A stretch of DNA of 63,836 bases, the filler included, from Acidimicrobiia bacterium (GTDB lineage: Bacteria; Actinomycetota; Acidimicrobiia; Spongiisociales; JAENVV01), in the NCBI GenBank assembly GCA_041577335.1. It is 4 parts of 4 records of this genome, joined end to end, with 100 filler letters (N's around TTAATTAATTAA, not from the genome) between each part and the next. Parts side by side here need not be neighbours in the genome. Positions count along the whole stretch, not along the records: positions 18,280 to 36,428 come from JBFGJH010000070.1; 3 more parts are not named here. One strand, 5' to 3'. Both the position numbers and the translations under genes were made by a program. Of this stretch, positions 25,729 to 35,884 are shown piece by piece; the first letter of the stretch is position 1, and the number at the start of each line of letters is the position of its first letter. Below the pieces are notes generated by a model. It ran no database searches, was not told the origin of the DNA, and saw nothing but the letters and a program-made list of their open reading frames with translations.

Positions 25729-26472
25729 TCACCCACCGTCTGCGGCAACGCCATGCAACCGTTCGGCCACGAGTGGCGGCTGCCCCGCCAGCGCCTCGAA
25801 CGCGGCGGCGAGATCACCCGAGTCAGCGTCATGGATGCGTGCGAGGCGAACGGGTCGGTCCATGAGTCCCCACGCCAGTATTTCGGCTGCCTGCTCTTGG
25901 CCCCACCGCCCGGTCGGAACGGAAGAGTCGCGCCAGGTATCCAAGCTGCGGACCGCGAGGAAACGGTCACGGGCCGCTTGATCTGCAGTCAACTCGGCCC
26001 ACGCATGGCCGAGCTCGTGCAGCACGATCATGCGAGCACCTGACCCGGAAGGGGTCTCAACCGCGCAAAGTTCCACCCTGGGCGGTGGCCCCCAATAGAA
26101 CAACCCAGCGCTGCCAGCGCACGCTGAGCGGGTTTCGTGGATCGAGATGGTGAGCGCCGGAAGCGCCAAGCCGGCCTGCTCGAAGCGGTCGACCGCCCAG
26201 TCGACCAGCGCTCGTTGGTCCGGATCCGAGGCGGTGATCAGCAAACGCTCGTCCGGGTCAGCGACCCACGCGGCTTCGGCGAGGCCAGACAGGAGCACCG
26301 CTGACAAGACGAGTAGCGACGCCAGGGCAACCCAGCGCAAGCCAACGCGGCGCCGCCTCGGGGACACTGGAGCTGGTCCACCTTCGCCGACGGGTGAACC
26401 ACAGGGGAGAGCCACCCGTGCATCCACGAGTGACCCTCCGCCGTTGTTGCGTGGTGGAGCCAACACGGTCAT
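25729..26472 (-). CDS. Membrane-anchored or secreted HExxH zinc metallopeptidase-like protein
   Basis: Basic stretch plus hydrophobic helix, then VLHELGHAW and a downstream EQAAE. Confidence 0.6.
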   Translation of the reverse strand: MTVLAPPRNNGGGSLVDARVALPCGSPVGEGGPAPVSPRRRRVGLRWVALASLLVLSAVLLSGLAEAAWVADPDERLLITASDPDQRALVDWAVDRFEQAGLALPALTISIHETRSACAGSAGLFYWGPPPRVELCAVETPSGSGARMIVLHELGHAWAELTADQAARDRFLAVRSLDTWRDSSVPTGRWGQEQAAEILAWGLMDRPVRLARIHDADSGDLAAAFEALAGQPPLVAERLHGVAADGG

Positions 26473-26660
26473 GCCGGGTTCCTGGCGAAACGGCGGCCCT
26501 TGCCGTCATTGCGGCGCTGTTGGCGGCGTTCAAAGCGCAGTTCGGCGGCTGCGTTGCGGCGCTGCCTCAGCAGCGCCACGCTCAACCGTTCCCTGGCGGC
26601 GAACCGCCGATCTTCGGCCTGTTGCTGCTGGATCGCTTCGAGCAGGATGTCGCTGAACAT
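26469..26660 (-). CDS. Small Arg/Gln-rich hypothetical protein
   Basis: 63 aa with an AGGGGAAG RBS. Its stop overlaps the next gene's start (ATGA). Confidence 0.6.
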   Translation of the reverse strand: MFSDILLEAIQQQQAEDRRFAARERLSVALLRQRRNAAAELRFERRQQRRNDGKGRRFARNPA

Positions 26661-26720
26661 TTCTTCCCCTTTCCTGGGTGAGAGCCGGAAATTCCGGCCA
26701 CGTGTCCAAGGTCGGGGCGG

Positions 26721-26751
26721 GCGGTGAGGCGCCAGTTAGCGGCCGCTTAGG
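26721..26751. promoter_or_regulatory. Putative SARP-binding direct repeats (11-bp period)
   Basis: GCGGTGAGG (26721), CCAGTTAGC (26732) and CCGCTTAGG (26743). Confidence 0.45.
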
Positions 26752-26875
26752 CGCTCCGAATGGGCGACTGAGAGGCGTTGCGAGAGAAGGGGAAGGGCGC
26801 CGGTGGACCACGAATGAGGCCCGCTCTGTGGAGCGGGCCTCAGGTTCGGCGATTGCCGAGATGTTGTTCGGGCGT

Positions 26876-27514
26876 TCAGTCGGGTCCGTCGCCTTCGACC
26901 AGGTTCTCGGCGATGGCGTTGTAGCGGTCGCCGTATGTGTCCCATGCCGGGCCAAGTTTGCTCGTGGGCTCTGCGGGTGTGTTCCAGTAGGAGTTCTGAA
27001 ACACCCGGTCGGCTCCTTCGAGTTCGTCGAAGGTGGCAGCCGACGGCTTCTCGACGTAGCCCAGCATCACCTTGTCAGCCGTCTCCGACATGCTCGGAAC
27101 AGGTGGCTGCCCGTTGGCGAGATTCTCGAGTACACGTTCGTGGTAGTACACCGAAGGCGCCTGTGGTTCGAGTGCTGCATCGGCGATGCTGCGCTCGGCG
27201 GAGAGTTCCGCCTGTGCTTGGCGCTGTGCAGCTTGAATCGCCTGCACCTGGGCGACATGGTCGTTGATCTGGGCCAACCCAGTGGGCTCTTGGCCCGCGA
27301 TGAACTCGGCCAAGCCATTGAGCCGAGCCGCTTCGGCTTCGATTGCGGCCTGGCTACGCCCTGCTGGTTCTGTCGACCGAACGGTCACGGCAGCCACAGC
27401 CGTGACCACGATCACGAAGATCGCGACTCCCCCGAGAACCGCCTTCCACAGGCTCGTCCGGGGCTCTTGGGTCTGCTGCTCCTGGGAGCTTTTCCTTACT
27501 TGAAGATCGGTCAC
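26876..27514 (-). CDS. Single-TM hypothetical protein
   Basis: GTG start with an AGGGAGG RBS, one TM helix and a helical C-terminal region. Confidence 0.65.
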   Translation of the reverse strand: MTDLQVRKSSQEQQTQEPRTSLWKAVLGGVAIFVIVVTAVAAVTVRSTEPAGRSQAAIEAEAARLNGLAEFIAGQEPTGLAQINDHVAQVQAIQAAQRQAQAELSAERSIADAALEPQAPSVYYHERVLENLANGQPPVPSMSETADKVMLGYVEKPSAATFDELEGADRVFQNSYWNTPAEPTSKLGPAWDTYGDRYNAIAENLVEGDGPD

Positions 27515-27574
27515 GCCGTTCCTCCCTTTCCTTCTGCCATGTCTTTCATGGCTATGAGAGGAAGATGCCGCCTG

Positions 27575-27605
27575 CCGCTTAGGAGTCGATAAGCACCCGC
27601 TTAGG
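27575..27605. promoter_or_regulatory. Putative SARP-binding direct repeats (11/22-bp period)
   Basis: CCGCTTAGG at 27575 and 27597 (22 bp apart), with degenerate TCGATAAGC at 27586. Confidence 0.5.
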
Positions 27606-27699
27606 GCACCGGCCGAGGCTGGTTGGATATTCGACAGGGCATGGAACGCCCGCTCAGTAGGGTTGACGTACGCTGCCGGCCCGAGGAGGGAAGGACCAG

Positions 27700-30600
27700 A
27701 TGCATTTCTCAGTGCTTGGCCCTCTTCGCATCGAGGAAGAGGGCGCAGCCGTTGCGCTGTCTGCACCCCGCCAACGGAGCCTTCTTGGATTGCTCCTCGT
27801 CCACGCCAACGAGGTTGTCTCGACTGACCGGATACTGGAGGAGATCTGGGGGGACGAGCCGCCCGCCAGCGGGATCAAGACACTCCACTATCACGTGTCG
27901 AAGCTGCGAGATGCGCTTGGGTCTGGTGCCCGGCTCTTGACCCACCCACCCGGTTACCTGCTCGAAGCGGATCGCGACGAGTTCGATGTATTCGAGTTCG
28001 AGGACCTGGCATTTGCGGGCAAGAAGCAGCTCGCTGACGACCCCGAGCAGGCGGCCGAAGTGCTCGGCCGAGCACTTGAGCTGTGGCGCGGCGCGCCCTA
28101 TGCCGACTTCGCATACGAAGCGTTCGCCATTCCGGAGATCAACCGGCTGACGGTACTCCACCGCACCACCGTTGCGGATCGGGTCGAAGGCGATCTCGCA
28201 TGCGGCCGTCACCGCGAGCTGATCGCCGAGCTCGAAGGCCTGGTCGACGCGCACCCCTACGACGAGCGTTTTCGGGCGCAGCTCATGACCGCTCTCTATC
28301 GGTCCGGACGACAGGCCGACGCTCTCCAGGCGTACCAGGACGCTCGTGCGTTGCTCGGTGACGAGCTCGGGATTGATCCATCGGCGGAGCTCCAAGCATT
28401 GGAGGAACAGATACTCCTTCAGGCGCCTGAGTTGGCCTCGCCCTCTGCGTCCACCTCCGCATTCAATCTGCCGAGTTATCTCTCACGGTTCATTGGTCGA
28501 GTCGACGAGCTTGCGGCAATCGAGGCGCTTCTGGCATCGAACCGTCTTCTCACTCTCGTGGGGCTTGGCGGGATTGGGAAGACGCGGATGGTCATCGAGG
28601 CGGCCTCCGGTCGGACGGGTGCCCACCGACATGGAGTGACGATGGTCGATCTTTCCTCGACTCTCGACCCCGCGGCCGTGCCGCAGGCATTCGCCGACGC
28701 CTTCGGCCTCAGGGTGGAAGCGAGCACGTCTCTTGAGGACTCGATCGTTGCGTACCTTGGTCGCAGAGACATGCTCGTGGTGGTCGATAACTGCGAGCAG
28801 GTCCTCGCGGCGAGCGCACAGCTCATGCACCGGGTGCTGGTAGCCGCGCCCTCGGTAACTGTTCTCGCCACGAGCCGCGAGCCTCTCGGCATTCCCGGCG
28901 AAGTCACGTACCGGGTGCCCCCACTCGGGGTCGTCCCGGGCGACGCCGATCAGCTTCCCGACGCCCTTGGGTTGTTCGTCGACCGGGCTGAGCGACGGCG
29001 CAGTGATCTCGATCCCGATGACCGATTCAAAGCGATCGCTCTGCGGATTTGCGAGCGCCTGGATGGGATTCCTTTGGCAATCGAACTCGCTGCCGCCCGA
29101 TTGCGCGTGATGTCGATTGCCGAGCTGGAGCAAGGCCTGAACGACCGGTTCGTCATTCTCACGGGCGGCGACCGGACCGAGCCTCTTCGCCATCAAACCC
29201 TTCAGGCCACCCTCGACTGGAGCTATGAGTTACTCGATGTTGAGGAGCAGATGCTTCTACGGAGGCTGGCAGTGTTTCGAGGCGGCTTCGACTATCGAGC
29301 TTTCGCGTCGTGCGTCGGTGACCTGGTGAGTCGGCCTCCGCTCGACGTGCTCACACGGCTGTGCGATACCTCGATGGTCATGCCTGGTAGAGGAGAGCCG
29401 GCCCGCTACCGCCTTTTGGAGACAATTCGTGAGTACGCCGCCGAAAAGCTCGACGAGGCCGGCGAAGCCGATGACGCCCACGAACGGCATGCCCAGTATT
29501 ACGGGGAGATGGCAGTTCGGACGGATGAAGAGGCCTTGAGCGGCGATCGGGTGGCGGCCTTCGAGCGTCTCAGAGCGGACGAGGCCAACGTGAGGACGGC
29601 GATCGCTTGGGCTGTCACTCACGGGGCGGCCGCGCTTGCCCTGGATATCGCAGCTGCGACGGGGGAGTTCTGGTTCCACAGCGACCATATCCAGGCTCGG
29701 CGGCTCTTTGCTTTGGCGGTTGACGCTGCTGATGATCCCGATCCGACAACGCTGTTCACGGTGCTGGCCCATATGTCTCGGTTTGCCAACTGGGAGGGCA
29801 AGACCGACGAGGCCGACGCTCTGATTGCCCGCCAGCGAAGGTTGGCTCAGTCCACCGGCGATAGTCGGGCGCTGGCGCGATCGCTTGCCTCCCAGGGAGC
29901 AGTTGCGTGGACGCGAGGCAGCTTCACGCGGGCGCGAGAGTATCTGTCGGACGCTCTCAAAGAGATCGACGTTGCCGCCACCCCGGAGGCGGCCAAATGG
30001 CTCGCCCAAGTGTCGTGGTTGGCGACGTGGATGGGAGATCTGACCGAAGCCGAGCGTTGTATCGCGGAGCTGGAACGGCTCGCCTCTGGCCAAGAAGATC
30101 CCACGATCGAGGCTCGCATCGCCGATTGCCGCGGCACCATCCTGCTTCAGGTGGGCGAACTGGAGCGAGCTGCCGCCGAGCTCCGCCATGCCAGGCAGCT
30201 GTTCGCCAAGGTCGGCATGACGTTCAATGTGCTGGACATGCTCCAAAGCGAAGCGACGATCCTCATCGACCTCGAGCGCTATGACGAAGCCCAAGCCACG
30301 GTCGATCAGCTCTTGGCGCAAGCGCGCGAGGTTCATGACGCCCGCTCCGCGGCCAGAGGCGTGCTTCTGCAAGGCAGGCTGGAAGCCGAGCTAGGCGACC
30401 CGCAAGCGGCGGAGCGACGCTTGCGATCCTCGTTGCGGATGAGCGATGAAGCCGGCAACCGTGCCGGCGTACTTCTGGCTGTGCTGGCCTTGGCGTCGGC
30501 GGCGGACCGCCAGGACCGGCCAGATGAGGTACTGCGTCTGCATGGGATCGCCGAATCGATTCGGACAGAGCTGGCGATCGAGCTTCCGGCCGTGACCCAA

Positions 30601-30795
30601 CGGAGAGTCAGAGAGGAGGTAGCCCGAGCCCGTTCTCAGGTGGAGGAGTCGGTTGCCGATGAGGTGTGGGAGCAGGCGGTCACTGGTGGCTATCCGGCAG
30701 CGCTGACGCTGATGGAGTCGTCTCCGGGCTCGGACAGTCCCAGCCGTGTGGCTATCTCCGGATCGACGGTCGGGTCGCCGGCCGGGGGCACATAG
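27700..30795 (+). CDS. AfsR/SARP-family regulator (OmpR-type wHTH + BTAD + NB-ARC ATPase + TPR)
   Basis: FSVLGPL, LMTALYRSGRQADAL, LGIDPS, P-loop GLGGIGKT, VVDNCE, LDGIPLAIELAAAR, LDWSY and C-terminal TPR-like helices. Confidence 0.92.
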   Translation: MHFSVLGPLRIEEEGAAVALSAPRQRSLLGLLLVHANEVVSTDRILEEIWGDEPPASGIKTLHYHVSKLRDALGSGARLLTHPPGYLLEADRDEFDVFEFEDLAFAGKKQLADDPEQAAEVLGRALELWRGAPYADFAYEAFAIPEINRLTVLHRTTVADRVEGDLACGRHRELIAELEGLVDAHPYDERFRAQLMTALYRSGRQADALQAYQDARALLGDELGIDPSAELQALEEQILLQAPELASPSASTSAFNLPSYLSRFIGRVDELAAIEALLASNRLLTLVGLGGIGKTRMVIEAASGRTGAHRHGVTMVDLSSTLDPAAVPQAFADAFGLRVEASTSLEDSIVAYLGRRDMLVVVDNCEQVLAASAQLMHRVLVAAPSVTVLATSREPLGIPGEVTYRVPPLGVVPGDADQLPDALGLFVDRAERRRSDLDPDDRFKAIALRICERLDGIPLAIELAAARLRVMSIAELEQGLNDRFVILTGGDRTEPLRHQTLQATLDWSYELLDVEEQMLLRRLAVFRGGFDYRAFASCVGDLVSRPPLDVLTRLCDTSMVMPGRGEPARYRLLETIREYAAEKLDEAGEADDAHERHAQYYGEMAVRTDEEALSGDRVAAFERLRADEANVRTAIAWAVTHGAAALALDIAAATGEFWFHSDHIQARRLFALAVDAADDPDPTTLFTVLAHMSRFANWEGKTDEADALIARQRRLAQSTGDSRALARSLASQGAVAWTRGSFTRAREYLSDALKEIDVAATPEAAKWLAQVSWLATWMGDLTEAERCIAELERLASGQEDPTIEARIADCRGTILLQVGELERAAAELRHARQLFAKVGMTFNVLDMLQSEATILIDLERYDEAQATVDQLLAQAREVHDARSAARGVLLQGRLEAELGDPQAAERRLRSSLRMSDEAGNRAGVLLAVLALASAADRQDRPDEVLRLHGIAESIRTELAIELPAVTQRRVREEVARARSQVEESVADEVWEQAVTGGYPAALTLMESSPGSDSPSRVAISGSTVGSPAGGT

Positions 30796-31523
30796 AGCGT
30801 TGCTCTCATGGAGATGTCTGCAGATGCCAACTCGCCGATCGTCACGTACTCGATGGTCGGTTCACCCACCGGGTAGATCGCTGCGACGTAGAGGACCACC
30901 TCATGCTCCGGTCCGTAGAGGTCGGCCAGTAGTTCGGAGAGGACTTTGATCCCGCGATAGTTGGGCTTGGAAACTGCCTTTGTTTCGCCAACGACGACGG
31001 GCTGCCAGAGGACGAGGGGAGTGTGGATGTCGATGGTCCGGGGCCGGACCAGAAAGTCGTTGGCTTTGTAGGTTTGCAGGCCCTGGTCTCCCGGATTGAC
31101 GCCCAGATCGGCGAACAGGCAATCCTCGGCAGAGACGCCGGGGAGCATGACTGCCTCGTAGCCCTCTGCCCGAGCCCGTCGAACCGCCTGGTGGCCAGGC
31201 GCAACGACGACCCCGGGGTGCCCGTAGAATGCGGCGCACACTCGTTTGCCGGCTCGGACCGAGTCGAGGATCAGCTCGACCATCTCGTGGTAGGTGTCGG
31301 CTCGTCGCTTGGTGGTTCCGTAGAGCGTTTCGAGTGACGTCGCATGGGGGTTCAGGTCTTCGATGACGGCAGCGGCGATTGGTTCGCCGACCTGATAGAA
31401 CACCTCGTCGGCGGCAGTGATTTGCTGGCGCGCCTCCGGCGTGAGCTGGAGGCCGGCCCGCATACCTGTGCCCACGACGAATAGGCGTCCAGATTCGAGA
31501 TGCCCGGTCTTGCTAGTTGTCAA
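30690..31523 (-). CDS. Borosin peptide alpha-N-methyltransferase (SonM/OphMA-like)
   Basis: GRLFVVGTG, LY-x6-R-x3-Y-x2-M active-site region, FYGHPGV, MLPGVSAEDCLFADLGVNPG, LVLWQ and TLYVPP. The TTG start overlaps the precursor's 3' end. Confidence 0.9.
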   Translation of the reverse strand: MTTSKTGHLESGRLFVVGTGMRAGLQLTPEARQQITAADEVFYQVGEPIAAAVIEDLNPHATSLETLYGTTKRRADTYHEMVELILDSVRAGKRVCAAFYGHPGVVVAPGHQAVRRARAEGYEAVMLPGVSAEDCLFADLGVNPGDQGLQTYKANDFLVRPRTIDIHTPLVLWQPVVVGETKAVSKPNYRGIKVLSELLADLYGPEHEVVLYVAAIYPVGEPTIEYVTIGELASADISMRATLYVPPAGDPTVDPEIATRLGLSEPGDDSISVSAAG

Positions 31524-31728
31524 TGATGACTAGGGGAATCGCAATCCCGGTTTCGCCCTGCCGTTTTAGTGCTCCCTGGATCTCTCTGACGTTACCTCTG
31601 ATGGCGATCTCGATGACCTCGTCAGCGATCCCAGGGAATCTCTCTCTCGCAGCGCTCCATGGGTCGGCCTCCCACAGTGCCCGAAAGTCCTCGTCGTCGG
31701 CGATTGCCACGAGCAGTTGCTTCAGCAT
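31513..31728 (-). CDS. Split-borosin precursor peptide (BBD leader + hydrophobic core)
   Basis: 71 aa. LKQLLVAIADDEDFRALWEADP...AIRGNVREIQGAL helical leader and C-terminal GIAIPLVIIDN. Strong CAGGAG RBS. Directly upstream of the methyltransferase. Confidence 0.8.
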   Translation of the reverse strand: MLKQLLVAIADDEDFRALWEADPWSAARERFPGIADEVIEIAIRGNVREIQGALKRQGETGIAIPLVIIDN

Positions 31729-31836
31729 CGTCTCCTGCCCTCCTGTCGTCGGAAACGCCCCAGTCCGACCCTACTCGGTGTGGCTTCGATTGTGCGGCGG
31801 CTGGAGGGGACTGTTGCTGGGCCACCAGGGCGACAT

Positions 31837-32337
31837 TCACGGCAGTGCATCAGGAGAAACATCACGCGGTGACTGAGCTTCGGCTCTCTCTGGCCTAGTG
31901 GCGCGGGGCACGTTGCGGAAGCCGACCCGACGGTGCGATAGATCACAGAACGGCTGGTTCTCGCTACTGCCGCACCGGCATAGGGTCATGCGGGGTCCGG
32001 CTTCGAAGAGGTTGCCTTTGGCGTCCCTCACTTGAAGGTTGCCGCGAACCATCAGCGGGCCGTTGGGCCAGGGGATGATTGTCGTCTCTGCCGGAACCGG
32101 CTCGTCAGGTCCGCCGTCGAGCCGTTCGTATGTCAGTGCCCCCGTCGGGCACCGCTCGACAGCAGCGGCGACCTCGTCGGCGTTTGCCGCATCGATGCGG
32201 ACCCACGGGGAGCGGTTGACATCGAACACCTGTGGCAGTGCCTTGAGGCAGATGGCGGTGTGAATGCACAGCGCCGAGTTCCAGTGCACCCGAATCGAGT
32301 CTGTCTCGTAAGTACGTTCAACCATTGGTGCCTCCAT
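31837..32337 (-). CDS. Divergent 4Fe-4S (YjdI-like) + CDGSH-type Fe-S protein
   Basis: CIHTAIC...CPTGAL and GPL...LCRCGSSENQPFCDLSH. Confidence 0.88.
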   Translation of the reverse strand: MEAPMVERTYETDSIRVHWNSALCIHTAICLKALPQVFDVNRSPWVRIDAANADEVAAAVERCPTGALTYERLDGGPDEPVPAETTIIPWPNGPLMVRGNLQVRDAKGNLFEAGPRMTLCRCGSSENQPFCDLSHRRVGFRNVPRATRPERAEAQSPRDVSPDALP

Positions 32338-32705
32338 GAGTGCCGGCCTCTCCGCACGGTAGTGGCCCGTTCCCAGTCAATGGGGGTTCGCGCACGGGAG
32401 CGACTCCGGATTTCGGAGCGGCCGGCCAGTGTTCGCGTCCGACAGGCCTGGGATTGTTTCCCACTCAACGTTTGTTAAGGGGCTTGCCTTAGGTTCCCTT
32501 TCATTCGGGAGGGACAGTCCCTCCCGGCAGGGGAAGAGAACATCGCGGTGGGCGCAAGAGCGCCGCCGAACGGTCTCGCAATCGCACATCCAAGGATCCT
32601 GTTGGGCTGGCGCGCACCCGACGGCAGGCATTGGCGGCGTACGCGACGGACCCAGGTGTCTTCACCGGCGACGAGCCGGGCCCCTGCAATAGCAAAGGGG
32701 AAGAC

Positions 32706-33245
32706 ATGAGTAAGGAACTCATCACCAAGGGGCCGAACGTCCCGACTGAGAAACGAGCGTTGGCACGGCTCGAGCGGGCGATCGAGCTCGGCGAGCTCGA
32801 GGATCTGGGCGGCCTTCCGGCCATTCCAGGAACGCCTCGCTATCTCGTCACCTACATGAACTCGCAGACCAGAAACGAGGCGATGCGCTCGGCGACGGTG
32901 GTGTCCATCACCAACCAGAGCCGCCTGATCAATCGAGTGTGGGTCTCGTTCTTCAAGGGGTTCACAGACGACTCGTCGTCGGTGGCCACGGTCGGGTTTG
33001 CGATCCCGCCGCAGTACACCGTGGACTTCGCATCACGCTCGCTGCCGGGGGAGCTGACCGTCACGAACGCAGTCGCCAATCCGGAGCTGACGTTCGATGA
33101 GGGACGCGCCGTCGTCTCATCCATGTGGCCCGAGATCGGTGTCAGTGCCCGTGTGATCTACACGGCAGGAGACAACGACGAGCGGCTCCACGCGATCACC
33201 GACTCCAAGGTGGTTCGCTACGGCAACCGCAACCGAGGCGACTAG
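32706..33245 (+). CDS. Hypothetical protein
   Basis: 179-aa ORF with an AAGGGGAAG RBS and beta-rich composition. Confidence 0.65.
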   Translation: MSKELITKGPNVPTEKRALARLERAIELGELEDLGGLPAIPGTPRYLVTYMNSQTRNEAMRSATVVSITNQSRLINRVWVSFFKGFTDDSSSVATVGFAIPPQYTVDFASRSLPGELTVTNAVANPELTFDEGRAVVSSMWPEIGVSARVIYTAGDNDERLHAITDSKVVRYGNRNRGD

Positions 33246-33306: not shown

Positions 33307-34437
33307 TTACCCGTCGGAGCTGCGGATGACGACGAGTTGGTCGGCAGCTGATTCGGCTCCCCATACCTCACCGGGCCGTCCGAGGATCTGGCGTACGTTG
33401 CTCGGGTCGGACGGAAGGTCGAACGTGTCAAACGTCTCGCTGGCAGGATCGAATCGATGGATGGCGTTGCCACCGAAATCAGACACCCACACAAGGTCGC
33501 GGTCGTCGACGTACACGGCGTACGCCTGCGGCTGTGCCCCGGGCAAAGGCCAGGTGGTCCATCTCTCCGTCTCCGGCACATAGCGACTCAGCTGACCTGA
33601 GTTCCATTCGCTCACCCATATCGAGCCTTGCGAGTCCGACCACACCCTGCGTGCTCCCTGGCTTGGCGTCGGCGGTTCGAGCACCGTGACCGATTTGTCG
33701 GGTGAGATGAGCCCAACGTAGCTTCCTGCCAGCGAGGCGAAGAACACACTTCCGAGCGGTGTGGCGGCAATGCCGTACGGGCCACGACCTCGAGGTGCGT
33801 CGAAGACCTCCATGTCGCCACTGGCCGGATCGAGCACTCCATAGACTCCGTTCTGCCCCGTGAACCACAACTGGCCAGCTCCGTCGAAGGCGGCCGTGTT
33901 CAGGTTGGCGTCGGGCCGATCGGCAGGCAGCCCGAAGGTGGTGACCTCGCCGTTGGAAGGGTCCACTCGGACGATGGCATTCAGGCCCCCGTCGGTCACC
34001 CACGCCAACCCGTCGGCTCCAACGATCACGCCGTGCGGTCGGGATCCGGCCCCCAGGGGGATGTGACGAGTCTCGCCAGTATCGGGGTCCAGCCAGCCCA
34101 GCTCTCCGGAGCCCTGCGCCGTATACCAGACGCCGCCGTCGGCAGCCGGTGCCACGTCGTGAGGTCGCGAGCCGGCCGGAACCGGATAAGCCACCACTTC
34201 GAGCTCGGAGGCGGAGGTTACTGGTCGATTCGTCGTCGACGCTGTCGTGGAACTCGGCTCGGCCGAGCCGCCCGCCCGCCCTGGTGCCGTCTCGGTTGGC
34301 GGCGTGCTGGTCGACGCTGAGCTCGCTTGCTCGCCCGTGGCCGGCGCCAGCGTGCTGTTGTCGGTCGAGCTAGCGGTGCAAGCGGCGGCTACCAGCAAAA
34401 GGGCCGCCAGGACCCCAGGCCGACTACGGTTCAACAC
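33307..34437 (-). CDS. Vgb (virginiamycin B lyase)-like beta-propeller lipoprotein
   Basis: Lipobox VAAAC, Ser/Thr linker, then PHDVAP..VWYTAQ, PHGVIVG, GPYGI and WVSEW propeller blades. Confidence 0.8.
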   Translation of the reverse strand: MLNRSRPGVLAALLLVAAACTASSTDNSTLAPATGEQASSASTSTPPTETAPGRAGGSAEPSSTTASTTNRPVTSASELEVVAYPVPAGSRPHDVAPAADGGVWYTAQGSGELGWLDPDTGETRHIPLGAGSRPHGVIVGADGLAWVTDGGLNAIVRVDPSNGEVTTFGLPADRPDANLNTAAFDGAGQLWFTGQNGVYGVLDPASGDMEVFDAPRGRGPYGIAATPLGSVFFASLAGSYVGLISPDKSVTVLEPPTPSQGARRVWSDSQGSIWVSEWNSGQLSRYVPETERWTTWPLPGAQPQAYAVYVDDRDLVWVSDFGGNAIHRFDPASETFDTFDLPSDPSNVRQILGRPGEVWGAESAADQLVVIRSSDG

Positions 34438-34504
34438 CGGAGTAACAGTACCCGGGCGGCCTCCGGCACCGCCTTTCGCCGCGACTTTCTCTGATGAGTC
34501 CTGC

Positions 34505-35884
34505 TCAGCCGATCGGCTCGAACCGTGCCTGGAAGAACCGCAGCGTTTCCGGCTCGTACGTGAACCGCAGGCCGCGCACTTCCTCAGCGTGCTCGTGCAC
34601 AGACAAAACCGACTCGGCGACGACATCCATGTGCGCCTGGGTATATACCCGTCGGGGAATCGCCAGTCGCACCAGCTCGAGCTTGGGAAAGTGGTGGTCT
34701 CCGGTCACCGGATCGCGGCCCGCCGACACCACGCCGCGTTCCATCCCTCGCACGCCCGCATCGAGAAACAGCTGGGCGGTGAGTGACTGAGCGGGGAACT
34801 CGTCTTGGGGGATGTGGGGGAGGATCTGGCGGGCGTCGAGGAAGACACCGTGGCCGCCAATCGGCAGCACGAGCGGGATCCCGGCCTTGAAGAGGCGGTT
34901 GCCGAGGTACTCGACCTGGCCGATCCGAGCGCGGATGTGGTCATCGGTGGCGACCATTTCTTCGATGCCTCTCGCCAGCGCCTCCATGTCTCGTCCCGAC
35001 ATTCCGCCATAGGTGTGCAGCCCCTCGAACGCGACGAGAAGCGAGCGCGCCTTACGGGCCAGCTCCGGATCGCGCAGGGCCAGAAAGCCGCCGATGTTGA
35101 CGAGATTGTCCTTTTTCGACGACACCGTGGCTCCGTCGGAATACGAGCAGATTTCGAGAAGGATCTCGCCGACCGACTTGTTTTCGTAGCCGCTTTCGCG
35201 CTGCTGAATGAAGTAAGCGTTCTCGAGTGCTCGGGTGGCGTCGAGCATCACCAGAATCCCGTGGCGTCGGCACAGCTCGTAGGTCGCCCGCAGGTTGGCC
35301 ATCGACACGGGCTGGCCGCCCGCCATGTTGACGTTGGTCTCGAGCGAGAGGTAGGGGATTCGGTTGGCTCCTACCCGGTCGATCAAAGCTTGGAGTTTCC
35401 CGAGGTCGATGTTCCCCTTGAAGGGGTGTTGTGCGGCGGGGTCGTGGGCCTCGTCGATGATGACGTCGGCGAAGATTCCGCCGGCCAGCTCCTGGTGAAA
35501 ACGTGTGGTTGTGAAATACATGTTTCCAGGGATCGTGTCGCCGGGCGTGATGAGAATCTGGCTGAGGATGTGCTCGGCTCCTCGCCCTTGATGAGTTGGG
35601 ATCAGCTCTTGGTATCCATAGACGTCGCGCACCGCCTGTTCGAGGTGGTAGTAGCTCTTGCTGCCGGCATACGCCTCGTCGCCCAGCATGAGGCCCGCCC
35701 ACTGGTAGTCCGACATGGCTGATGTTCCTGAGTCGGTGAGCAGGTCGATGTAGACGTCCTCCGACCGCAGCAAGAACGTGTTGTAGCCGGCGTCCTCGAT
35801 GGCCTTTTGCCGGTGTTCACGGGTGGTCATGCGGATCGGCTCGACCATCTTGATCTTGTACGGCTCGGCCCAGCTCTTCGTCAT
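34505..35884 (-). CDS. tpl: Tyrosine phenol-lyase (tryptophanase family, PLP)
   Basis: DLLTDSGT, GDEAYAGS, HQGRGAE and PLP lysine SSKKD. TPL-type YFTTTR, ERGVVSAGR and LRFFQARF. Confidence 0.78.
   Translation of the reverse strand: MTKSWAEPYKIKMVEPIRMTTREHRQKAIEDAGYNTFLLRSEDVYIDLLTDSGTSAMSDYQWAGLMLGDEAYAGSKSYYHLEQAVRDVYGYQELIPTHQGRGAEHILSQILITPGDTIPGNMYFTTTRFHQELAGGIFADVIIDEAHDPAAQHPFKGNIDLGKLQALIDRVGANRIPYLSLETNVNMAGGQPVSMANLRATYELCRRHGILVMLDATRALENAYFIQQRESGYENKSVGEILLEICSYSDGATVSSKKDNLVNIGGFLALRDPELARKARSLLVAFEGLHTYGGMSGRDMEALARGIEEMVATDDHIRARIGQVEYLGNRLFKAGIPLVLPIGGHGVFLDARQILPHIPQDEFPAQSLTAQLFLDAGVRGMERGVVSAGRDPVTGDHHFPKLELVRLAIPRRVYTQAHMDVVAESVLSVHEHAEEVRGLRFTYEPETLRFFQARFEPIG

Follow-up and report, generated by a model that had tools for sequence, protein, structure and literature searches.

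Locus and gene content

We analysed a borosin locus in a 63,836-nucleotide stretch of DNA from an Acidimicrobiia bacterium (assembly GCA_041577335.1), hereafter the window, which consists of joined contigs; the locus itself lies within a single 18-kb contig of unremarkable G+C content. It encodes a small precursor protein, a borosin alpha-N-methyltransferase and, convergent with the enzyme, a large AfsR-like regulator with SARP, STAND and TPR domains (Table 1). On sequence and predicted structure, the precursor and enzyme are a type IV split borosin pair, the commonest split borosin type (Imani et al., 10.1101/2021.12.24.474128), and we propose that the pair is probably coupled functionally to the regulator, in one direction or the other, as an intracellular signalling module.

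Both minus-strand open reading frames (ORFs) of the pair, described in an earlier note on this DNA, were confirmed at the coordinates in Table 1. The enzyme and the borosin-binding domain (BBD) protein are each single-copy in the host genome, and the four best-scoring named relatives of the enzyme are all from Acidimicrobiia, in line with the host that the note had proposed. Its suggestion of translational coupling behind a strong ribosome-binding site also held: the precursor and enzyme genes overlap by 11 nt, with the TTG start of the enzyme inside the Ile69-Asp70 codons of the precursor (an overlap that is identical in the related genome G004), and AGGAGG stands 11-16 nt 5' of the precursor ATG. 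A TANNNT hexamer, which we take to be an actinobacterial -10 element, lies 32-54 nt ahead of the precursor start and is followed by CG at all six loci of the enzyme clade described below; it is a candidate only, and a sigma-70 consensus scan for an operon promoter found 0 sites against 0.7 expected. The 3' ends of the regulator and enzyme genes overlap by 106 nt.

Table 1. Features of the borosin locus, in window coordinates
Feature	Position	Strand	Basis
Borosin precursor, 71 aa	31513..31728	-	BBD at about residues 2-56, then a linker and the core at the C-terminus; AlphaFold2, Foldseek and profile matches
BBD leader, residues 2-56	31561..31725	-	AlphaFold2 helices; residues 1-54 align with SonA 3-54
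Likely core, L66-V-I-I-D-N71	31516..31533	-	N-methylation predicted within L66-I69; terminal motif common to six precursors
Borosin alpha-N-methyltransferase, 277 aa, TTG start	30690..31523	-	PDB matches; SonM-equivalent residues; no fused BBD or core
Ribosome-binding site AGGAGG of precursor	31739..31744	-	Read from sequence
Probable -10 hexamer TAGGGT of precursor-enzyme operon	31768..31773	-	TANNNT followed by CG at 6/6 clade loci
AfsR-like SARP-STAND-TPR regulator, 1031 aa	27700..30795	+	Pfam/NCBIfam domains; convergent with enzyme; orthologue kept in clade
Uncertain member: 247-aa HExxH protein	25729..26472	-	34% homologue near G004 precursor

The methyltransferase and its precursor

The assignment of the enzyme made in the earlier note is upheld by the PDB, where all 25 sequence matches at E<=0.001 are borosin methyltransferases. 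The top-scoring relatives are dbOphMA (3.9e-57), OphMA (2.9e-53), SonM (8e-51) and MroMA (6e-45), and the values for dbOphMA and SonM mean that the resemblance is not due to chance. These alignments cover residues 9-266. The BBD and core are fused to the enzyme in OphMA, dbOphMA and MroMA, whereas here the substrate has a gene of its own; OphMA also uses a macrocyclase, OphP. All four enzyme motifs quoted in the note are present, including GRLFVVGTG and FYGHPGV, and the published BorosinMT rule of YGHP plus DCLFAD (Imani et al., 10.1101/2021.12.24.474128) is satisfied by FYGHPG at residues 99-104 and EDCLFADL at 133-140.

It is hardly credible, and already largely refuted, that the locus instead holds a methylase of tetrapyrroles or rRNA, or a protein like YabN, beside an unrelated small ORF. 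The Pfam match to TP_methylase (2e-19) and the automatic names of many homologues, such as 'YabN' or 'precorrin methylase', would fit such a protein, although the Pfam match reflects a shared fold only. The NCBIfam CobI, CobJ, CysG and YabN models score 17-40 bits against cut-offs of 163-525 (the best, 40 against 525), the 25 PDB matches include no non-borosin structure, and BBD-like ORFs adjoin 111 of 162 related enzymes. These 162 loci comprise the best 80 of at least 558 genome loci, the best 80 of at least 555 metagenome loci and five more, after removal of three duplicates.

The catalytic residues could be placed by alignment of enzyme residues 54-140 with SonM 44-133, in which the offset shifts by three residues. 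Y68, R74, Y78 and Y100 then correspond to SonM Y58, R67, Y71 and Y93, all four of which Miller et al. examined (PMC8429565), so that the Tyr/Arg/Tyr set named in the note is present together with the cofactor tyrosine. The SonM Y58F, Y93F and R67A chains score below wild type against the enzyme, as expected if these residues correspond, and the Tyr-x5-Arg-x3-Tyr spacing is that of OphMA. A public gene call, P0004, begins the enzyme at Met21 (257 aa); we prefer the TTG start because the Met21 call removes the GRLFVVGTG strand and the TTG start fits the PDB alignments better. Computationally, then, the 277-aa protein is a borosin alpha-N-methyltransferase with its catalytic residues, and its methylation activity is predicted from them.

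The enzyme belongs to a six-row clade (Shimodaira-Hasegawa-like approximate likelihood ratio test, SH-aLRT, 98) in a quick IQ-TREE tree of 159 enzymes from which L098, L120, L125 and one short row were left out; the tree was rooted at the midpoint because the host genome yielded no usable non-borosin methylase as outgroup. This clade is distinguished by a changed active-site lock. In SonM, E146 and F99 belong to a network that closes the active site (F99/W166/E146/Q167/E173), and E146 contacts the core non-specifically; the network is conserved without being a published class criterion. Provided that residues 140 to 174 align without a gap, E146 corresponds to position 153, where 152 of the 153 rows outside the clade have Glu or Asp and the six within it have K, K, L, I, L and L. 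In the window enzyme E146 is replaced by K153 and F99 by V106, with W173, Q174 and E180 (SonM W166, Q167 and E173) retained; positions 155 and 213 have also shifted in the clade. A second set of 113 rows includes 17 that likewise lack the acid at position 153, all of them close to the clade.

These substitutions raise the question of whether the clade enzyme has become slow or been repurposed, chiefly sequestering the BBD protein or methylating another target such as the regulator. We consider this very improbable: Y68, R74, Y78, Y100, YGHP, S131 and Q174 are retained in all six members, the C-terminal motif of the precursor is conserved, and the non-specific nature of the E146 contact means that its loss may only alter substrate fit. 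Since all the catalytic residues are kept, our own reading is that the change at position 153 would alter the fit of the substrate without abolishing activity. With its changed lock, the clade may act on another range of substrates.

Sequence-only searches with the precursor matched only the precursor itself. An AlphaFold2 model, made with two relatives as alignment, has a mean predicted local distance difference test (pLDDT) score of 85.5 and five helices (residues 2-11, 13-21, 23-30, 36-44 and 47-56), the tail being of low confidence from residue 61. With Foldseek, the displayed ranks 1-12 are all SonA chains (probability up to 0.95, root-mean-square deviation (rmsd) 2.0, E 0.36 or worse), and a wide VIA structure search ranked highest DesB (Z 6.7), SonA (5.8), LigA (5.3) and the BBD region of MroMA (4.2). 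The fit of residues 1-54 to SonA 3-54 (rmsd 1.9, at that Z of 5.8) is modest for a small helical domain. A profile built from neighbouring ORFs scores the precursor at 26 bits, and a three-sequence precursor profile matched 66 proteins in 1.84 billion, including Pfam-LigA matches and a BBD-enzyme fusion. The BBD/LigA-like leader fold that had been predicted for the small ORF, and with it the split type IV architecture of a stand-alone enzyme and a separate precursor with a five-helix BBD, are both borne out, with methylation of the precursor itself a prediction. A weak NHLP-related NCBIfam match (15 against 34 bits) and ESM Atlas matches (0.82-0.84) were set aside as leads only. The 319-aa protein P0183 carries a BBD directly ahead of a borosin enzyme with a very short linker, a type 0-like arrangement with scant room for a core.

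For the core, the earlier note had proposed GIAIPLVIIDN. Its last five residues are conserved; the remainder is not, and Pro65 has no amide NH available for methylation. The motif [V/A]-I-[I/V]-D-[N/R]-stop ends the precursors of the window and of G004 as well as P0135-P0138, each from a separate 50%-identity cluster, and the linkers ahead of it differ in length; the precursors of other clade members end differently, for example in YWGLVR in G020. The TTG overlap partly constrains the I/V-D junction, not the residues before it. From its position C-terminal of the BBD, the terminal segment is likely to be a single core, and because the conserved part is its last five residues the methylation sites are likely to fall within L66-I69. 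This placement draws on the analogy with SonM, which prefers hydrophobic cores and selects a position following a bulky residue for its first methylation (PMC11751858). Contigs from some runs leave the precursor gene uncovered, and one contig (run X6) links position 31531 to 31736, with a different stretch in place of the precursor gene; it may carry a different precursor allele, and with 26 letters supporting one side it is too weak to call an allele swap.

The closest characterised system is SonM/SonA of Shewanella oneidensis MR-1 (PDB 7LTC; PMC8429565, PMC10549244, PMC11751858). Both enzymes stand alone and are of similar length, and both are accompanied by a separate precursor with a five-helix BBD and a hydrophobic tail, although SonA and the 71-aa precursor are only about 15-17% identical. 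The methylated L63 and I65 of SonA are followed by 8 and 6 residues, whereas the hydrophobic stretch here lies 2-5 residues from the C-terminus. By analogy with SonM/SonA, it is very likely that the BBD docks on the enzyme, that the tail enters the active site and that one or two amide nitrogens within L66-I69 are methylated; in the mechanism established for that pair, the Tyr/Arg/Tyr residues would stabilise the deprotonated amide and S-adenosylmethionine would give the methyl group.

The convergent regulator and signalling neighbours across borosin loci

The pair alone is ordinary, since thousands of homologues exist: 6,328 of 8,000 scored proteins match the enzyme at E<=1e-40, and Lee et al. 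list 2,699 borosin enzymes. The interest that the earlier note saw in an uncharacterised peptide is to that extent reduced, and the regulator, which it had missed, is the more interesting partner. Pfam and NCBIfam models identify SARP (Trans_reg_C plus BTAD), NB-ARC-type STAND ATPase as well as TPR regions in this protein; the NB-ARC match falls just below the Pfam cut-off (20.7 against 23.5 bits), and Walker A and B are intact. The arrangement of SARP, NB-ARC-type ATPase and TPR is shared with AfsR of Streptomyces coelicolor, whose TPR region is considered a sensor for a natural signal that is as yet unknown (10.64898/2026.09.02.748808). The window regulator is not an AfsR orthologue, scoring 214.5 bits against a cut-off of 1,430. 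Of 8,000 candidates scored, only three match its TPR region at E<=1e-15, and the 3.38-Mb host genome holds about six STAND genes. A single-sequence AlphaFold2 model of the whole regulator is unusable (pLDDT 43.8), and complex prediction for its TPR residues 560-1008 with the precursor gave 0.00 in two runs in which the controls remained unfolded, which is neither support nor counter-evidence.

Linkage of regulator and pair was examined in 22 genomes of the family (G000 included; nine are <90% complete or >5% contaminated) and 401 sampled genomes of the class; genome and locus searches overlap, and their counts are not additive. The enzyme is present in three of the 22 and three of the 401. An orthologue of the regulator TPR region (45-56% identity) occurs only in the same three enzyme-bearing family genomes. 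Other TPR-region matches stand at 26-27%, so that at the thresholds used 4/22 family and 6/401 class genomes have a match, including a weak one in G405; the fourth family genome has a 26% match only, and no orthologue above 26% was found in the other 19 family genomes. Precursor, enzyme and convergent regulator are all present in G004 and G020, where the regulator is cut by a contig end, and over its full length the regulator from G004 shares 62% identity, compared with 33-42% for partial matches to host paralogues. In the six-row clade the convergent regulator stands at five loci, and two further enzyme/regulator pairs are suggested. That tail-to-tail pairing with a regulator is kept in relatives suggests that the peptide works in intracellular signalling.

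A wider pattern emerges across the 162 loci, for which Pfam scans covered 64 of 64 convergent neighbour ORFs, 59 of 81 upstream ones and 72 of the 73 other ORFs with 450 aa or more. A STAND and/or TPR protein adjoins the pair at 79 loci, and at 50 of the 82 that have 3 kb or more of flanking sequence on each side. These partners are SARP proteins (7, two of them fragments found by phmmer), cyclase-AAA_16 proteins (24), contig-end fragments with AAA_16 and/or TPR (8), cyclase-(NB-ARC)-TPR (11), kinase/NB-ARC-TPR-LuxR (5), kinase-TPR or nSTAND1-WD40 (11), cyanobacterial AAA_35 or TPR (9), GGDEF with TPR (2) and others (2). As a control, 80 loci around genes with a CDGSH domain, the query being a gene next to the precursor, were scanned for 76 of 84 ORFs (eight, from five close-kin loci, were omitted) and gave two STAND/TPR neighbours, or three counting a TPR-sulfotransferase, with 2-3 at 50 well-flanked loci; the contrast overstates the effect because these controls come mostly from other phyla.

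In the surrounding 51-row clade (support 99), partners accompany 36 rows, and the label cyclase-AAA_16-TPR applies to 31 of these; eight of the 32 loci with that label overall are contig-end fragments with AAA_16 and/or TPR only. Convergent orientation holds for 31 of the 36 partner genes in this clade, and 26 extend over the enzyme end. Partner type changes at least 11 times among eight types on 78 labelled tree rows, so that kin share partners, yet unrelated sensors have been recruited repeatedly. A shared 'borosin-specific TPR family' was considered and ruled out: the TPRs of cyclase-type partners are no closer to the window TPR than unlinked host paralogues, which indicates that there is no dedicated receptor family.

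This pattern bears directly on whether the pair and regulator are functionally unconnected, with an adjacency that was inherited or belongs to a shared accessory region. Kin do share neighbours and partner type tracks the tree (the 11 changes above), the partner TPRs are not one family, the control is taxonomically mismatched and clade member L014 has no partner. We nevertheless judge such a coincidence improbable: non-orthologous partners of the same architecture recur in Actinomycetota, Chloroflexota, Acidobacteriota, Pseudomonadota, Cyanobacteriota and Thermoplasmatota and in three orientations, STAND genes are rare in the host genome, and the 19 further family genomes yielded no regulator orthologue above 26% identity. 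On gene context, borosin pair and regulator are likely to form one functional unit.

Signalling systems beside borosin enzymes have precedents. GGDEF proteins occur in 56% of split-borosin clusters, and type X borosins are TPR-TM-GGDEF-methyltransferase fusions, TM being a transmembrane part (Imani et al., 10.1101/2021.12.24.474128). Type X likewise links a borosin enzyme, TPR and signalling output, although its TPR is periplasmic and enzyme-fused, whereas here the TPR belongs to a STAND ATPase encoded apart from the enzyme, whose output is DNA binding. The son locus also has a signalling gene next door and no clearly dedicated protease; the partner there is a GGDEF protein, as opposed to the cytoplasmic, convergent SARP-STAND-TPR protein of the window, which is not accompanied by an efflux pump. 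The literature searched, which lay outside supplementary Pfam tables and most subscription journals, contained no link between borosins and STAND proteins, SARPs or class III cyclases, nor any report tying an AfsR-like protein to a borosin.

Several side observations concern individual loci. L134:3927-6718 holds five similar BBD precursors on the opposite strand, flanking one borosin enzyme on both sides, and L004, L090, L108, L113 and L142 each have two borosin methyltransferases. Trp-rich cores ending R-W-x-x-x-W-x-x mark a subclade (L026, L032, L045, L055, L102, L105, L113, L123, L126, L142 and L147), nine loci of which are labelled with a cyclase-AAA_16 and/or TPR partner. Highly basic precursor tails occur at L017, L042, L131, L168, L082, L138 and L172, in a clade that includes Thermoplasmata records and has an upstream cyclase-TPR gene at four loci. 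At the Caldilineaceae loci L022 and L049, the borosin enzyme has a SARP-STAND-TPR gene upstream of it and, downstream, a LodA-like oxidase. The Wenzhouxiangella-type loci L019, L020, L041 and L061 bear more resemblance to a biosynthetic cluster, with the pair set between a flavin amine oxidase and an S8 peptidase.

A proposed signalling role and the remaining neighbours

Borosin papers call the biological role of bacterial borosins unknown (10.1101/2021.12.24.474128; PMC10549244), and shewanellamide A is described in PMC10549244 as lacking antibiotic activity, with its role open. We propose a model in which the precursor or its tail, depending on methylation, would bind the TPR sensor of the regulator and switch its ATPase, thereby starting or stopping the transcription that its SARP part drives; in sister clades, a nucleotide cyclase or kinase would respond to this input in its place. 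That the precursor or tail is the ligand of the regulator TPR is a tentative element of this model, less secure than the functional unit itself. Equally speculative is the extension that many bacterial split borosins could be methylation-switched intracellular ligands of NLR-like STAND-TPR sensors with interchangeable outputs, and not secreted products. If true, the model would make the peptide the first natural ligand known for an AfsR-like regulator, and borosin function could be read out directly as transcription. A transcription-factor partner makes both the role of the borosin and the signal of the AfsR-type TPR testable by reporter, and it is the conserved regulator, the clade-wide swap of cyclase and SARP at the same tail-to-tail position and the changed lock that add value to an otherwise common pair.

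A conventional alternative is an ordinary biosynthetic cluster, in which the SARP would activate the operon and a host protease would free a short, methylated extracellular peptide without feedback on the regulator. SARPs are the usual activators of biosynthetic clusters; the son cluster lacks a protease of its own and yet yields a linear peptide (PMC10549244); HExxH or calpain-like proteins lie near three loci; and the cassette may vary faster than the sensor. Sister-clade cyclases and kinases at the same position are, on the other hand, incapable of activating a pathway, and no direct repeat shared by the six clade loci was seen upstream of the operon. Neither a peptidase nor an exporter shows clear conservation: the host genome yielded no shewasin-type protease, and the neighbouring genes that were scanned include no exporter. 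Retention of the product inside the cell would agree with this, with the reservation that the son cluster has no protease either. On balance we regard a secreted product of this kind as rather unlikely, while giving it more weight than an accidental adjacency.

Coupling of pair and regulator remains the reading that we favour, and a number of observations weigh against it. The clade lacks the E146 equivalent and the window enzyme that of F99 too, so that catalysis may differ from that of SonM. L014, a member of the same clade, has no adjacent regulator; a SARP protein that is 95% identical may adjoin an enzyme that is only 77% identical and, should these two prove adjacent, variation is quicker in the cassette than in the sensor. 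No SARP-type direct repeat common to the six clade upstream regions was seen. Across the wider set, 32 of the 82 well-flanked loci have no STAND/TPR neighbour, the TPRs of cyclase-type partners are no closer to the window TPR than unlinked paralogues, and the loci are best scorers with many close kin, set against controls mostly from other phyla. The signalling module as a whole is a computational prediction.

Among the remaining neighbours, the 247-aa protein (also noted at L011:10098-10838) has a hydrophobic N-terminal stretch, an HExxH motif and no Pfam match. A homologue with 34% identity lies 1.1 kb upstream of the G004 precursor, and the family occurs in six of the 22 genomes, some of them without a borosin; it is possible that this protein is a peptidase or a SARP target, and its membership of the cluster is uncertain. 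In G020 a calpain-like (Peptidase_C2) gene, divergent from the precursor, stands in place of the HExxH gene. Divergent from the SARP gene, at 26469-27766 on the minus strand, are two ORFs without Pfam matches that are possible SARP targets: one of 296 aa contains a stretch resembling a membrane anchor, and the other, of 63 aa, is basic.

On the other side of the pair, just upstream of the precursor, a minus-strand gene (31837-32337) encodes a Fer4_19 and CDGSH iron-sulfur protein, which served as the control query; it was rejected as a cluster member, having no homologue in five related loci. A 204-aa ORF at 32631-33245 on the plus strand has no Pfam or NCBIfam match and no paralogue in the genome. 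Two further genes were not treated as cluster members, namely a Vgb-lyase-like beta-propeller with a long, low-complexity N-terminal part (33307-35884, minus strand) and the tyrosine phenol-lyase that adjoins it, which scores above the TIGR02618 cut-off.

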